Source: an uncultured Bacilli bacterium (GTDB lineage Bacteria > Bacillota_I > Bacilli_A > RF39 > UBA660). Taken from it: a stretch of DNA of 64,000 nt. A program made the position numbers and the translations under genes. The stretch's first letter is position 1. Each line of letters starts with the position of its first letter. Below, in pieces: positions 1,486 through 42,340 of the stretch. The stretch is taken from the NCBI GenBank assembly GCA_934140575.1, contig CAKPBJ010000005.1, positions 19,385-83,384 of the forward strand, in the 5' to 3' direction. The notes under the pieces are model-generated. The model did not search any database. It was not told where the DNA came from and saw only the letters and a program-made list of their open reading frames with translations.

Positions 1486-3957
1486 ATGGATAGATTAGAA
1501 AAAAACAATATAGTAAAAGAGGTACAGGATTCGTTTTTAGAGTATTCAATGAGTGTTATTGTTGCTCGTGCATTACCTGACCTTAGAGATGGTTTAAAGC
1601 CTGTTCATAGACGTATTTTATATTCTATGTATGAATCAGGTTATACACCAGATAAACCTCATAAAAAGAGTGCTAGAATAGTTGGAGATGTTATGGGTAA
1701 ATATCATCCTCATGGTGATTCTTCAATTTATGAGGCAATGGTAAGAATGGCCCAAGATTTTTCTTACAGATATATGCTTGTTGATGGTCATGGTAATTTT
1801 GGTAATATTGAAGGTTATGGTGCAGCTGCAATGCGTTATACTGAATCAAGACTTTCTAAAATATCACTTGAATTATTAAGAAATATTAATAAAGATACAG
1901 TTAATTTTACTCCTAATTTTGATGAGAGTGAAAGAGAGCCAGAAGTTTTACCTTCAAGATTTCCTAATATATTAGTTAATGGTACGACAGGTATAGCTGT
2001 TGGTATGGCAACTAATATTCCTCCTCACAATTTGAGTGAAGTAATTGATGGTTGTGTTGCTTATATTGAAAATCCTGATATTGATTTAGATGGATTAATG
2101 AAATATATTAAGGGGCCTGATTTTCCTACAGGAGCCATTATTCTCGGAAATAGTGGAATAAGAAAAGCTTATGAAACTGGTAGAGGAACAATAACTATTA
2201 GAAGTAAGGCTACAATTGAGGAAAATAATGGTAAACAACAAATTATAATTGATGAAGTTCCTTATGGAGTTAATACTTTAGAGTTAAAGAATAAAGTTGC
2301 TGAATTGGTTCATAATAAGACAATCGAAGGTATTGCTGATTATCATTCAGACTTAAAAAATGGTATAAAAATTACGATAACATTAAAAAGAGATGCAAAT
2401 GCTCAAGTAGTATTAAACAAATTATATAAACATACTGCTTTTCAAACATCATATGGAATTATATTTTTGATGCTTGATCAAGGTGTTCCAAAAACTCTTG
2501 GTTTAAAGGATATAATAGTTAAATATATTGATTATCAAAAAGAAGTTATTATTAGAAGAACTAAATTTGATTTAGATGTTGCTGAAAAAAGAGTACATAT
2601 ATTAGAAGGGTTAAAAATAGCTTTAGATAATATTGATGCTGTTATTAAAGTAATTAGAGGTTCTAAATCAGATGAAGAGGCTAGAAATGGATTGATAAAT
2701 GGTTTTTCATTAACAGAAATTCAAGCAAATGCAATTTTGGAGATGAGATTGCGTCGTTTAACTGGTTTAGAGCGTGAAAAGATAGAAAATGAACTAAATG
2801 ACTTACTAAAGACAATTGCTGAGTTAAAAGCCATTTTAGCTAGTGATGAGAGGATATTAGAGGTTATTAAGAATGAATTATTAGAAATTAAACAAAAATT
2901 TGGCGATGAGAGACGTACTAATATTGATATGACTGCAATTGAATATATTGAAGATGAATCTCTTATACCAGAAGAAGATATTATTATTAATTTGACTAAT
3001 AATGGTTATATTAAGAGATTAAGAAGTGATACTTATAAAACTCAAAATAGAGGTGGAGTTGGTATTAAGGGTATGTCAACAAATGAGGAAGATTTTGTTG
3101 AAAAAATACTTTCTATGAGTACACACGATTGGATTTTATTCTTCTCTAATAAGGGTAGAGTTTATAGAATGAAGGGTTACGAAGTACCTGAATTTTCTAG
3201 ACAATCTAAAGGATTACCAATTATAAATTTATTGCCACTGGAAAAAGATGAGAACATTAGTTCGATATTGAGTGTTAAACAGGATGATGATTTTACAAAA
3301 TATTTAATATTTGCTACTAAGAATGGTATTGTTAAACGTACTCCGATTGAAGAGTTTGACAGTATTAGAAAAGGTGGTAAAATTGCTATTGTTTTAAAGG
3401 AAAATGATGAATTAATAAGTGTAAAAAAGACTTGTGGAAAAAATGAAATTGTAATCGGAGCAAGTAATGGACGTATGGTTCGATTTGATGAGAATGAAGT
3501 TAGATCTATGGGTAGAAGTAGTTCTGGTGTTAAAGGTATTGATCTTGATGGTGCTATAGTTGTTGGTGCGGAGGTTGTTGAACCTGGACATATGGTTCTT
3601 ATAGTTACTGAGAATGGTTATGGAAAACAAACTTTGATTGATGAATATAGATTAACTCATAGAGGCAGTAAAGGAGTAAAGGCTTTAAATATCACAGAAA
3701 AGAATGGTACAATGGTTTCTTTAAAAACTCTAATGCCAAATGCTCATCTTGATTTAATGATTATGACTGATAATGGTATTATTATTAAACTTCCTTTAGA
3801 GCAAGTTTCTACTTTGAAAAGAGCTACACAAGGTGTTAGATTAATGAATTTAAAAGAAGGTCAAAAAGTAACTACAGTAGCTTTAGTTGAAAAAGAAGTT
3901 GAAGAAGAAGATAATTCTGAGAATAATTCAGAAGAGTCAAGTATAGAAGAAGCATAA
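1486..3957 (+). CDS. gyrA: DNA gyrase subunit A
   Basis: 823 aa. Has [21 protein letters not shown] and AAMRYTE (catalytic Tyr) motifs and a C-terminal beta-pinwheel. GGAGG RBS upstream. Confidence 0.98.
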
Positions 3958-3972
3958 GGCTTCTTTTTTTTT
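3948..3972 (+). terminator. Intrinsic terminator after gyrA
   Basis: Hairpin agaagc/gcttct overlaps the stop codon and is followed by a T8 run. Confidence 0.6.
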
Positions 3973-3991
3973 AATTGTTTAAAATTAAAAT

Positions 3992-4007
3992 TATTTCCCG
4001 GGAAATA
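3992..4007. promoter_or_regulatory. Noc-binding site (NBS), perfect 16-mer TATTTCCCGGGAAATA
   Basis: Exact match to the published NBS palindrome. It sits inside a 26-bp perfect palindrome AAAATTATTTCCCGGGAAATAATTTT (3987-4012). Confidence 0.75.
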
Positions 4008-4135
4008 ATTTTATGTTTAATTTAAGCAATTTACATTAGCATTTGTACATCTTTAATAATTTAAATTGCTTAAAATGCATTTTGTTTAAACCTATACTTT
4101 CCACACATTTTGTTATTTTATGTATGATGTATAAT

Positions 4136-4151
4136 AGTTTCACGTGGAACA
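4136..4151. promoter_or_regulatory. parS-like site (14/16 to palindromic consensus)
   Basis: aGTTTCACGTGgAACA. It is one mismatch from the B. subtilis-type TGTTCCACGTGAAACA read on the other strand. A degenerate DnaA-like CTTTCCACA lies at 4097-4105. Confidence 0.5.
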
Positions 4152-4230
4152 TTTATATTTTTTCACAAATATAGTTACAAATAAATCTAGTAAATTTACA
4201 TATCAATAGGATTTGGGAAATATCTAAAAT

Positions 4231-4246
4231 TATTTCCCGGGAAATA
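4231..4246. promoter_or_regulatory. Noc-binding site (NBS), perfect 16-mer
   Basis: TATTTCCCGGGAAATA inside the same 26-bp palindrome (4226-4251). It lies 19 bp upstream of the parS at 4266. Confidence 0.75.
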
Positions 4247-4265
4247 ATTTTAAAATTAAATGTTA

Positions 4266-4292
4266 TGTTTCACGTGAAACATTCTTTCCACA
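4266..4292. promoter_or_regulatory. Perfect parS (4266-4281) plus degenerate DnaA box (4284-4292)
   Basis: TGTTTCACGTGAAACA exact. It is followed by CTTTCCACA (7/9 to TTATCCACA). Confidence 0.75.
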
Positions 4293-4405
4293 GAAAAAGC
4301 AGAAAATATAAAATTAATTAATTATATAAACTTTTTTTGTTGTAAAATTTAAATAAAGTTTATATTTTATTGGCGTTGAAATAATTATTATGTTTAAATT
4401 TATAA

Positions 4406-4421
4406 TATTTTCCCGGAAATA
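4406..4421. promoter_or_regulatory. Degenerate NBS (14/16)
   Basis: TATTTTCCCGGAAATA. It occupies the same position in repeat unit 1 as the perfect NBS at 4815 does in unit 2, and lies 20 bp upstream of the parS at 4442. Confidence 0.45.
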
Positions 4422-4441
4422 AAAGTTTAATAAATTGGTAA

Positions 4442-4466
4442 TGTTTCACGTGAAACATTATCCACA
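4442..4466. promoter_or_regulatory. Perfect parS (4442-4457) directly abutting perfect DnaA box (4458-4466)
   Basis: TGTTTCACGTGAAACA then TTATCCACA with a 0-bp gap. Confidence 0.8.
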
Positions 4467-4678
4467 AGAAAAGTTGAAATACTATGATAATATAAATTTT
4501 CAACAAAAAAAGTGATAATTAGCATAAAATATTATATTTTATAGAATGCAGATACTTATATAACTTATAATAGTATTGATTCTTATATTTTTCTTAAATA
4601 TCAACAAATATTGAGTGTTATATCTAATTTTATTACTCTTTTTTATGTTGTCTATATAAAAAATATAATTTAAATTTA

Positions 4679-4703
4679 TGTTTCACGTGAAACGTTATCC
4701 ACA
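4679..4703. promoter_or_regulatory. parS 15/16 (4679-4694) abutting perfect DnaA box (4695-4703)
   Basis: TGTTTCACGTGAAACg then TTATCCACA. Confidence 0.75.
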
Positions 4704-4814
4704 GAAAAAGTAGAAAATATAAAATTAATTAATTATATAAACATTTTTTTGTAAAATTTATATATAGTTAATATTTTATTGGTGTTTAAATAATTATTAT
4801 ATTTAAATTTATAA

Positions 4815-4830
4815 TATTTCCCGGGAAATA
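4815..4830. promoter_or_regulatory. Noc-binding site (NBS), perfect 16-mer
   Basis: TATTTCCCGGGAAATA, 20 bp upstream of the parS at 4851. Confidence 0.75.
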
Positions 4831-4850
4831 AATGTTTAATAAATTAGTAA

Positions 4851-4876
4851 TGTTTCACGTGAAACTATTATCCACA
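4851..4876. promoter_or_regulatory. parS 15/16 (4851-4866) plus perfect DnaA box (4868-4876)
   Basis: TGTTTCACGTGAAACt, one base, then TTATCCACA. Confidence 0.75.
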
Positions 4877-5094
4877 AGAAAAGTTGAAATACTATGATAA
4901 AATAAATTTTCAACAAAAAAAGCGATAATTAGCATAAAATATTATTGTTTTTATAGAATGCAGATACTTATATATCTTATAATAGTAATAATTCTCTAAT
5001 TTTTCTTAAATATCAACAAATATTGAGTGTTATATCTAATTTTATTACTCTTTTTTATTTATATTTTCTATATAAAAAATATAATTTAAATTTA

Positions 5095-5121
5095 TGTTTC
5101 ACGTGAAACAATTTATCCACA
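5095..5121. promoter_or_regulatory. Perfect parS (5095-5110) plus perfect DnaA box (5113-5121)
   Basis: TGTTTCACGTGAAACA, 2 nt, then TTATCCACA. Followed by a very AT-rich stretch. Confidence 0.8.
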
Positions 5122-5215
5122 AAAAATGATAATAATTGAATTTAAAGAAAAAAAGTCACAAATATTATTAATAATTATATTTATATTTACTTTTTCAGCA
5201 GTTTATAATACAATA

Positions 5216-5296
5216 TGTATGTGCAATGAAAGTGATTGAAACAGGTCAGGATTGGAAAATAGCAGCCTTAAGGTCCTCCTTTCATGTGCACTTTTT
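5216..5296 (+). ncRNA. ffs: Small (4.5S-type) signal recognition particle RNA
   Basis: Contains CAGGTCAGGattGGAAaatAGCAGCCttAAGG, which matches the conserved SRP domain IV (CAGGUCAGGuccGGAAggaAGCAGCCAAGG in E. coli 4.5S). The closing stem is gtgcaatgaaag/ctttcatgtgcac, followed by a T-run. A TATAAT lies at 5204-5209. Confidence 0.8.
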
Positions 5297-5311
5297 ATTT
5301 TGGAGGAATTT

Positions 5312-15500: not shown

Positions 15501-15821
15501 TTTGGTAAATTAAATGAAGATATTCTTATTTATATGTATACTGAATGGTTTGAAAAACTTGTGGATAAGTTACATATTGAACATGTTAGGGAGAGTAGAA
15601 ATTCTATTGAAATGACTTTTCCTGGTGATGTTGTAGCGCATCTTGATACCGAGGAATTGTTTATGGATGCTATTTCTATATCTCATATGTTTAGATTTAT
15701 TAGTAGAGGGTCTAATTTAATTATTATTTTGGATACTATTAAACTTGATAAGCATCCTATTTATTATTTAGTTGAGTATTTGAGTAAAATTTATGATAAA
15801 TTTGGTAAAGTTCTTGACTAA
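12507..15821 (+). CDS. mfd: Transcription-repair coupling factor
   Basis: 1104 aa. Has a UvrB-homology N-terminus, a CarD/RID domain (GDYVVHNVHGIG), an SF2 helicase (GDVGFGKTE, DEEQRFG) and TRG/TRCF C-terminal domains. Confidence 0.96.
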   Translation: MNFFDDVIKFDLKKDMGICNVTDEFFCVLLNKLNREDKNILVVVDSLFEANKLYSSLSNYTDLVYLFPMDDFLTSEALAISPDLMISRLECLNKINSGKKCIVITNLMGYLRFLPKKSVYLDSIIELKVGKVIEPSLLVSKLISIGYVRDTLVNKTGEFGVRGFVIDVFPIDEDNPIRIEFFDDEIESIRYFSPEDQKSISFANSISIKPNFEFIVNGEVPEEEFGKQKYLQKYTEVCSISDYLDDTITIFKDYEQLKVSYRGIMNEIIEYRNSKDTEFDLEYMMDFNKIHVDFPIYYFSLNNLTYGSYVSQVVNFGVRTINSFNENGDLINNYINNSIASNKTVIIVLKQYQIRSVLKHLNMKLVQSDFSSIKTNIVNIVDGELNEGFVYDDIVVLTSKELFNLHSNTKKYNTKFKYSSAIKDINKLEIGDYVVHNVHGIGVYNGIVTLSSNNNLKDYLEILYAGTDKIYIPVEKISLISKYSGREGVSPRVNKLGGTEWIKTKRRVQAKVTDMADKLLKLYAERESRKGFAFSKDCDMSRDFEKDFPYELTTDQARAIEQIKSDMEKPVPMDRLLCGDVGFGKTEVAFVAAFKAILDSKQVLFLCPTTILSNQHYENAKVRFKNFPVNIGLLNRFTSSSEEKRILNGLKDGTIDMVFGTHRLLSDDIYLKDLGLLVIDEEQRFGVAHKEKIKQYKTNVDVLTLTATPIPRTLQMSLVGIRSLSLIETPPVNRYPVQTYVVEENKQILKDAIYKELSRNGQVFILYNKVQSIDEFSLRIKNLIPDARIGIAHGQMNKNTLESTIMDFVNYEFDILICTTIIETGIDIPNVNTLIIIDADRFGLSQLYQIRGRVGRSDKFAYAYLMYQPFKSLTEMAVKRLNVIKEFTELGSGFSIATRDLSIRGAGDILGSEQAGFIDSVGVDLYLKMLNDEVNRRNTGIDVSSDDLEDKKSLINISTHISDDYVSDDDLKIEIHKLINTITDKNSFDTIKNELEDRFGKLNEDILIYMYTEWFEKLVDKLHIEHVRESRNSIEMTFPGDVVAHLDTEELFMDAISISHMFRFISRGSNLIIILDTIKLDKHPIYYLVEYLSKIYDKFGKVLD

Positions 15822-16559: not shown

Positions 16560-16795
16560 ATGAACATATTTAAATGTTTTGATGAAGAGCTTTATAGATA
16601 TATATTTATTATAGAGAACTCTGTTGGTGGAAATGAGTATAAATAATTTATAGAGTATGGCTTCTGAACTTCTATATTGATATGTAAGTATAGACGTAGA
16701 TAGGCGTTAACTATTTGAGTGTATAATTTAAATATTATAAATTAAGGTGGTACCGCGAGAGAATCGTCCTTATGTTTATAATATTTTTTTTTGGA
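16560..16795 (+). promoter_or_regulatory. T-box leader (Met specifier candidate AUG at 16657-16659)
   Basis: Stem I elements AGAGA and GGTGGAA. T-box sequence AATTAAGGTGGTACCGCGAG at about 16740-16760. Terminator arm and T9 run just before metG. Confidence 0.85.
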
Positions 16796-42199: not shown

Positions 42200-42340
42200 A
42201 GTTTATAATAAAGACAATTTGTAGGTGCCATAGACAGTAGGTGTAAAAATAAATCCTACCGAGGACTTTAATTAGTATATAAGGGTTCTTGGCATATGTC
42301 TTAGAATCCTTTTATTATGGCATCCCTCAAAAAATTAAGG
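42200..42340 (+). promoter_or_regulatory. L10(L12)4-responsive rplJ leader (ribosomal protein leader), tentative
   Basis: About 150 nt structured gap between rplA and rplJ. Has hairpin gtaggtg...cctaccgag and a terminator-like gggttct/agaatcc stem followed by TTTTATT. Position matches the Firmicute L10 leader. Confidence 0.55.

Follow-up and report, generated by a model that had tools for sequence, protein, structure and literature searches.

Architecture of the gyrA-SRP RNA interval

The DNA studied here, called the window below, is a stretch of 64,000 nucleotides from an uncultured Bacilli bacterium of the RF39 lineage (contig CAKPBJ010000005.1, positions 19,385 to 83,384), and the element in question is an array of parS sites, most of them joined to a box for DnaA, the initiator of replication. 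Its neighbours are gyrA and the gene of the small signal recognition particle (SRP) RNA, and the interval between them (positions 3958-5214) is non-coding, 1.25 kb long and has a G+C content of about 20%. Besides parS sites and DnaA boxes, this interval contains palindromes of the Noc type (Table 1).

The parS consensus is a 16-bp palindrome (TGTTNCACGTGAAACA), for which the window was searched with up to two mismatches allowed. The six parS-like sites of the array compare with 0.26 expected in the window, and the 64 kb contain no further site within this limit. Four of them are followed on the plus strand by a perfect DnaA box (TTATCCACA), and only one more perfect box is present in the 64 kb (position 15560, minus strand). 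The total of five exceeds the expectation of 1.0 and was reached in none of 100 shuffled sequences. Together with two boxes that match in seven of nine positions, the four perfect boxes occupy 1.03 kb (4097-5121) outside oriC. Note that their strand is not the one favoured by base composition: because the plus strand is strongly G-rich (skew +0.15 to +0.49) and the minus strand carries 22 of the window's 26 one-mismatch boxes, the four C-rich perfect boxes on the plus strand oppose the compositional trend.

In these points the sequence bears out its initial annotation, in which the motifs were identified as canonical parS sites and DnaA boxes, four perfect boxes were placed 0, 0, 1 and 2 bp behind a parS on one strand, and two 7/9 boxes were recognised, one of them 2 bp past the parS at 4266 and the other at 4097. 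All of these were found again. The claim made there that a box is fused to every parS is true for five of the six sites and fails for the degenerate parS at 4136. The unattached weak box upstream of that site reads TTTTCCACA in strains L003 and L006, and in the sister species L010 a perfect TTATCCACA is located 39 bp (start to start) upstream of the degenerate parS, i.e., at the same offset as the 4097 box of the window.

Other kinds of elements were sought in the same interval. An RNA gene or structured element within the repeat was ruled out, as the Rfam scan (E up to 1) recovered only the SRP RNA and the fold z-score of -0.9 indicated no stable RNA fold. Small open reading frames in the array (up to 48 amino acids) are of low complexity and none is credible. 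An array of promoters was rejected as well, promoter-like sites being at chance level (21 versus 18.6 in shuffled sequences).

Table 1. Sites of the array and its bordering genes, in window coordinates.
Feature	Position	Strand	Remarks
gyrA	1486..3957	+	Pfam DNA_topoisoIV and GyrA C-terminal repeats; left edge of the array
Terminator-like hairpin with T run at the gyrA end	3945..3967	+	Consensus scan
Noc-type palindrome ATTTCCCGGGAAAT, perfect	3993..4006		Invariant in six other assemblies of the species
Weak DnaA box CTTTCCACA (7/9), unattached to parS	4097..4105	+	Ends 30 bp upstream of the parS at 4136
Degenerate parS AGTTTCACGTGGAACA, no adjoining box	4136..4151		Two mismatches
Noc-type palindrome, perfect	4232..4245		
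Tandem repeat of 409 bp	4256..5126	+	2.1 copies, 91% identity; Tandem Repeats Finder; repeat families D1-D8
parS with weak box	4266..4292	+	parS 4266-4281; gap 2 bp; box CTTTCCACA (7/9) 4284-4292
Noc-type site, degenerate	4407..4420		Three alleles among strains, one of them the perfect palindrome
parS with perfect box	4442..4466	+	parS 4442-4457; gap 0; box 4458-4466; invariant across all strains
parS with perfect box	4679..4703	+	parS 4679-4694 (one mismatch); gap 0; box 4695-4703
Noc-type palindrome, perfect	4816..4829		
parS with perfect box	4851..4876	+	parS 4851-4866 (one mismatch); gap 1 bp; box 4868-4876
parS with perfect box	5095..5121	+	parS 5095-5110; gap 2 bp; box 5113-5121
Small SRP RNA gene	5215..5300	+	Rfam RF00169, 55.5 bits; right edge of the array

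Position of the array relative to the replication origin

Contigs from human gut metagenomes that encode an identical GyrA were regarded as belonging to the same species, and their gene order is rnpA-(gap)-dnaA-dnaN-comK-recF-gyrB-gyrA-array. An oriC beside dnaA and upstream of gyrB, as the initial annotation had expected, is indeed seen on these contigs: the gap between rpmH/rnpA and dnaA contains a cluster of near-consensus DnaA boxes, the dnaA-dnaN gap contains one perfect and one 8/9 box, and the GC skew changes its sign in the rpmH-dnaA gap. The array does not adjoin dnaA and is located about 7.5-8.7 kb from the dnaA-dnaN gap. Both of its flanks have a skew of +0.15 to +0.38 with no change of sign, and the genes on either side are transcribed in the same direction. 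Because the skew flips at rpmH-dnaA and stays positive across the array, the origin is canonical and the array is situated 8-9 kb to its right. The array would therefore be an origin-proximal centromere and, in all probability, not a replication origin. In the dnaA-dnaN gap, the box is followed by GTAATAATATAAATAGTA, and the array boxes are devoid of such a trinucleotide (DnaA-trio-like) run, a difference that was judged by eye in very AT-rich DNA and is weak; the AT content of the array is high enough to accommodate an unwinding element.

Noc-type sites and candidate proteins for both palindromes

The palindrome ATTTCCCGGGAAAT (14 bp), which we take to be the Noc-binding-site consensus of Wu et al. 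2009, is interleaved with the parS sites in three perfect copies and one degenerate copy, as compared with 0.16 expected. Within each repeat unit, it is located 20 bp upstream of a parS. Over the ~14 kb leftward of the origin and the remaining 59 kb of the window, no further parS or Noc-type site was found. Across ~86 kb around the origin, no second centromere-like cluster exists, and all Noc-type sites of this region lie inside the array.

Left of oriC, the contigs of the species have the gene order mnmE-mnmG-rsmG followed by the genes for a Noc-like protein (430 amino acids), ParA (265 amino acids) and ParB (303 amino acids). The best match of ParB in PDB is B. subtilis Spo0J (2.5e-60), and arginine and glycine at two key specificity positions assign it to the parS type. 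The Noc-like protein matches best to Noc 7NFU (1.1e-66, versus 4e-51 for ParB), and its specificity positions (Q, K, S, R) agree in three of four residues with the QKKR of Noc, the corresponding residues of Caulobacter ParB being RTAG (PMC7383237). Judged from these sequences, the proteins for both palindromes are plausibly present in the species.

In the Noc-like gene (L127:14003-15295), the ATG is preceded at a distance of two codons by an in-frame stop, and the start lies ~19 residues later than that of the aligned Noc chain. As the stop precedes the ATG, the protein would lack the N-terminal amphipathic helix that targets Bacillus Noc to the membrane. Note also that the protein has an additional ~150-200 amino acids, of low complexity by eye, ahead of its C-terminal end.

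Tandem duplication and variation between strains

Each 409-bp unit of the tandem repeat contains two parS-box composites of slightly different type and one Noc-type site, so that the four perfect composites represent no more than two subtypes, each of them duplicated. The uniform strand of the boxes inside the array has a simple explanation as well, since tandem duplication alone would produce it. An assembly artefact was ruled out, because the same array is present in six independent metagenome assemblies of the species.

When these six strains and the window were compared, none of the 132 columns in parS sites and perfect boxes was variable, in comparison with 58 of 1051 columns elsewhere (p = 0.0009). 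No such protection is seen for the Noc-type sites within the species (3 of 56 columns vary). Furthermore, recombination between two parS sites has cost strain L001 a half unit of 244 bp (L001:13367-13400, compared with window 4851-5121), and strain L006 is devoid of 26 bp (compared with window 4225-4250) including the Noc-type site 4232..4245.

Conservation of the fusion in related species

A scan of 185,579 species genomes for CACGTGAAAC-N(1-11)-TTATCCACA returned at least 132 matches in at least 120 stretches. Among the matches listed, at least 17 stretches belong to low-GC metagenome-assembled genomes (MAGs) from the gut (labelled uncultured Bacilli, Mollicutes, Tenericutes, Mycoplasma sp. 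or Clostridium sp.). According to tblastn, the fusion occupies the corresponding place between gyrA and dnaX in at least 16 other species, whose GyrA proteins are 65-92% identical to that of the window (L096 was placed by DnaX, 59%). The lengths of the repeat units and the gaps between parS and box (0-6 bp) vary among these species, and Noc-type sites occur in most of their arrays. For example, L096 has six units of the order Noc site - DnaA box - parS, mostly 109-110 bp apart, and L065 has three units of the order Noc site - parS - box with a period of 309 bp. In L010, the nearest species (GyrA 92%), the spacer cannot be aligned with that of the window except for islands consisting of parS plus box, including a weak variant (CTTTCCACAGAAAAA) of the composite 4266..4292.

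The orientation of the boxes was counted for the 83 parS sites of the window and 16 species, a box being accepted with up to two mismatches and within 6 bp of the parS. An outward box (TTAT end toward parS) accompanies 64 of these sites and an inward one only two. If the perfect boxes by which the loci had been selected are left out, 35 of 54 sites have an outward and two an inward box. A fixed orientation relative to the origin was ruled out: the box is distal to gyrA relative to parS in the window, L010, L065, L102, L019, L091, L096, L097 and L109, and proximal in L074, L082, L126, L100, L058, L077 and L038. The constant feature is the geometry of the box relative to parS, not to the origin. 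These comparative data support the parS-DnaA-box composite of the initial annotation as a probably functional unit.

Related loci were also sampled without regard to the motif, using 80 metagenome loci anchored on GyrA. Only the four loci of this sample whose GyrA is at least 65% identical (65-74%) have parS arrays after gyrA. Seven plain parS sites with a period of 38-39 bp occupy the gyrA-SRP RNA position in L162 (3266-3511), and plain parS arrays are found at this position in L129 (6720-6953) and L131 (6843-7009) as well; L130 (3043-3416) has one outward one-mismatch box abutting a parS and one inward one-mismatch box. Universal conservation of the fusion in the clade was thereby ruled out. 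In view of the plain arrays in four relatives, the parS array is clade-wide, and the box fusion was gained and lost between lineages.

Composites in other phyla

Among the matches listed, the gap between parS and box is characteristic of the lineage: 8-9 bp in Caulobacteraceae, 1 bp in Devosia, 5 bp in Emticicia, 4-10 bp in Treponema, 6 bp in Deferribacteres, 4 bp in Lachnospiraceae resembling Coprococcus/Eubacterium and 4 bp in Fibrobacter. Genus-level comparison outside the clade revealed that the letters of the spacer vary and both cores are kept. In the loci that were checked, composites are at centromere positions, e.g., between mnmE and mnmG in Caulobacter (L103:7373-7400) and Deferribacteres (L052:2196-2221), and the Coprococcus composite (L055:4978-5001) is upstream of parA. 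Two spirochaete composites (L085, L117) directly follow gyrA.

The other parS sites of the clusters outside the clade have an outward box in seven and an inward box in four of 86 cases. Since elsewhere the other parS sites of a cluster rarely carry a box, the arrays of gut Bacilli stand apart. An enrichment of the composite across all bacteria would be hard to claim, the rough chance estimate (~80 in the full collection) being of the same order as the at least 132 matches listed for this one orientation. Outside the clade, it is only conservation at the level of lineages that would argue for a function.

One set of matches appears to be of a different kind. In an Acidocella MAG (OZ255623.1), five near-identical 34-bp copies (GTTCCACGTGAAACACCCCC..TGTTATCCACA) are dispersed over one chromosome, at 1.38 (L076), 1.98 (L080), 1.03 (L089), 0.73 (L098) and 2.56 Mb (L112). 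This sequence looks like a dispersed repeat with a parS half-site and a DnaA box.

Possible interplay of DnaA and ParB at the array

The gyrA-SRP RNA gap would thus serve as a centromere near the origin, its parS sites loading ParB and being interspersed with Noc-like sites. In the reading that we favour, DnaA would permanently occupy one flank of each ParB loading site, and the two proteins would act on each other site by site, the titration of DnaA being a side effect; we regard the chances of this coupling as evenly balanced. We infer that DnaA probably occupies the array boxes because they conform to the consensus that is universal for DnaA and their variants are also those of the species' own oriC. 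With gaps of 0-2 bp, bound DnaA would necessarily affect ParB, either by competing with its nucleation or, alternatively, as a one-sided barrier to the sliding of the ParB-CTP (cytidine triphosphate) clamp off parS. Conversely, the DnaA bound at the array could be a target of ParB and ParA (Soj), perhaps also of the Noc-like protein, and the outcome would be a coupling of initiation potential to segregation. At oriC of E. coli, DnaA oligomers that start at a strong box grow in the direction of its TTAT end. In the array, this end faces parS, and one may speculate that ParB and a growing DnaA oligomer exclude each other. The direction of any effect between DnaA and ParB is something that we infer as well. 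Titration of DnaA is an expected by-product, since the array has four of the five perfect boxes counted in the ~86 kb examined around the origin, and oriC only one.

Several of the results speak against a site-level coupling or restrict it. The composites within one array are paralogs that arose by tandem duplication, and their counts overstate the number of independent events. Within the species, the perfect boxes taken alone have 0 of 36 variable columns, a conservation that is not significant. Because the search that yielded the 16 related species had the composite itself as its target, their choice is subject to ascertainment bias, and none of the four clade members with parS arrays in the motif-blind sample carries a fused array; the fusion is dispensable in close relatives. 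Furthermore, no single origin-directed model holds, because it depends on the lineage on which side of parS, as seen from gyrA and oriC, the box is placed, and gaps that vary from 0 to 6 bp argue against a rigid contact of ParB and DnaA and favour an effect of proximity.

The coupling can be extended to a hub of three proteins, an idea that we offer tentatively and consider doubtful. ParB, the Noc-like paralog devoid of its helix, and DnaA would be placed side by side on a repeated unit of ~60 bp (Noc site - 20 bp - parS - DnaA box), which would act as a cis-encoded checkpoint tying the availability of the initiator to the assembly of the centromere. The outward fusion of box and parS would then be convergent across Caulobacterales, Devosia, Emticicia, Treponema, Deferribacteres, Lachnospiraceae and gut Bacilli, and would have been studied only in Caulobacter.

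The boxes could instead form a pure DnaA sink (like the DnaA-box clusters of B. subtilis or datA of E. coli) that shares the gap with a centromere, their adjacency to parS having been spread by duplication without any function at the single site. The surplus of perfect boxes over oriC, the recent 409-bp duplication and the relatives that manage with box-free parS arrays agree with this explanation. However, a sink does not need boxes 0-6 bp from parS in a fixed orientation, and this geometry is kept in ~13 differently built arrays whose spacers can no longer be aligned, the inward orientation being nearly absent (2 of 83). We therefore consider a pure sink unlikely. The initial annotation had proposed a datA-like sink, too, and likewise a switch in which spreading ParB might evict DnaA.

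It is quite improbable that the 9-mer serves some purpose other than DnaA binding, either by extending the site of ParB, of the Noc-like protein or of a further factor, or as a -35-like element of small promoters. Each box does overlap TCCACA, and a -10-like hexamer (TATGAT or TAAAAT) follows 16-17 nt further on; promoter-like sites are nevertheless not above the level of shuffled sequences (see above), and the array contains neither a known RNA family nor a stable fold. Besides, the motif is the universal DnaA consensus, its variants recur in the species' own oriC, and the variable gap of 0-6 bp between two conserved cores points to two separate recognition elements.

That the boxes are chance motifs in a recently amplified repeat and have no selective value is very improbable, although tandem duplication accounts for their copy number and uniform strand and although strains differ in copy number (the half unit missing in L001). 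Against it, species with 65-92% GyrA identity have kept the fusion and its orientation while the rest of the spacer was turned over, and a C-rich box on the G-rich strand runs counter to the compositional trend. Finally, the displaced or second oriC module considered in the initial annotation, to which the clustering of consensus boxes for DnaA, in DNA that is very AT-rich and near the origin region, might point, is scarcely credible, given a strongly positive skew and co-directional genes on both sides of the array, a skew flip (the check proposed there) at rpmH-dnaA, the site of the canonical bipartite box cluster, and, as weak evidence, array boxes without a DnaA-trio-like run.

Comparison with known systems

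The closest known counterpart is the centromere of Caulobacter crescentus, where, a few kb from the origin, a chromosomal parS likewise has a consensus DnaA box beside it; our genome scan recovered it (parS, 8-9 bp, TTATCCACA) between mnmE and mnmG. In that organism, DnaA is bound at the centromere and makes segregation possible (Mera, Kalogeraki and Shapiro 2014; reviewed in PMC6399470). A function of DnaA at the centromere has thus been demonstrated in Caulobacter, whereas the window array is known from its sequence and its function is putative. The two also differ in their organisation: in Caulobacter and the other phyla sampled, one parS per cluster has a box, whereas in the window array five of six do, with gaps of 0-2 bp, and this array is in tandem, has interleaved Noc-type sites and belongs to a low-GC host of the Bacillota.

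The DnaA-box clusters of B. subtilis and datA of E. coli resemble the array in having high-affinity boxes outside oriC near the origin, with an expected titration of DnaA. The mechanism of datA requires IHF and promotes the hydrolysis of DnaA-ATP; nothing at the window array points to a mechanism of this type. To our knowledge, clusters of the B. subtilis or datA type are not built on parS, and a fixed geometry relative to parS is absent from known sinks.

The set of proteins encoded here (ParA, ParB, a Noc-type paralog and DnaA) is the same as in the Soj/Spo0J-DnaA axis of B. subtilis and in the Noc system of S. aureus. ParA and Noc act on DnaA-dependent initiation, and the route from Noc to DnaA in S. 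aureus was not found by the authors (PMC5540599). The Soj/Spo0J and Noc models do not include a uniting cis element, whereas the window array interleaves three kinds of sites within ~60 bp. With canonical ParABS clusters, the array shares 16-bp palindromes near the origin and cognate parAB genes; it differs from them in the fused DnaA boxes and the Noc-type sites, and sister species (e.g., L162) keep plain parS sites. Direct-repeat arrays are also known from Deinococcus radiodurans, whose cisII and cisMP elements reportedly bind DnaA as well as ParB; they combine origin and centromere on secondary replicons, upstream of parAB, whereas here a separate canonical oriC exists on the main chromosome (PMC7671480).

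Literature searches revealed no description of an array with a DnaA box on most parS sites or with interleaved parS, Noc and DnaA sites, nor one of DnaA as a roadblock for ParB. Centromeric DnaA in Caulobacter, the action of ParA (Soj) on DnaA in Bacillus and the restraint by Noc in S. aureus are not yet joined by any mechanism. The array repeats the three kinds of sites many times at distances of a few bp, and among sister species their spacing and their presence vary naturally; the interplay of DnaA, ParB and Noc thereby becomes accessible to in vitro tests that require only purified proteins and short DNA. The comparative data set indicates which geometry is tolerated by selection. If the fusion is truly widespread across phyla, centromere-bound DnaA would be general rather than a peculiarity of Caulobacter. 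The interest of the array is tempered by the uncultured hosts, by the dispensability of the fusion in sister species and by the putative character of DnaA binding.

Genomic surroundings

The genes beyond the SRP RNA gene are tadA, dnaX, ybaB and recR (Pfam). Nearly all long open reading frames in the first 12 kb of the window are on the plus strand. The GC skew is unusually strong and uniform throughout the window (positions 1-64000; about +0.2 to +0.49), at a G+C content of 22-34%. On the contigs of the species, the gene between dnaN and recF (L001:6375-6833) belongs to the ComK family, and it was found in several related species, too. Apart from the SRP RNA, Rfam detected a T-box leader (16570-16774) and a ribosomal protein L10 leader (42210-42324) in the window, both of them ordinary.

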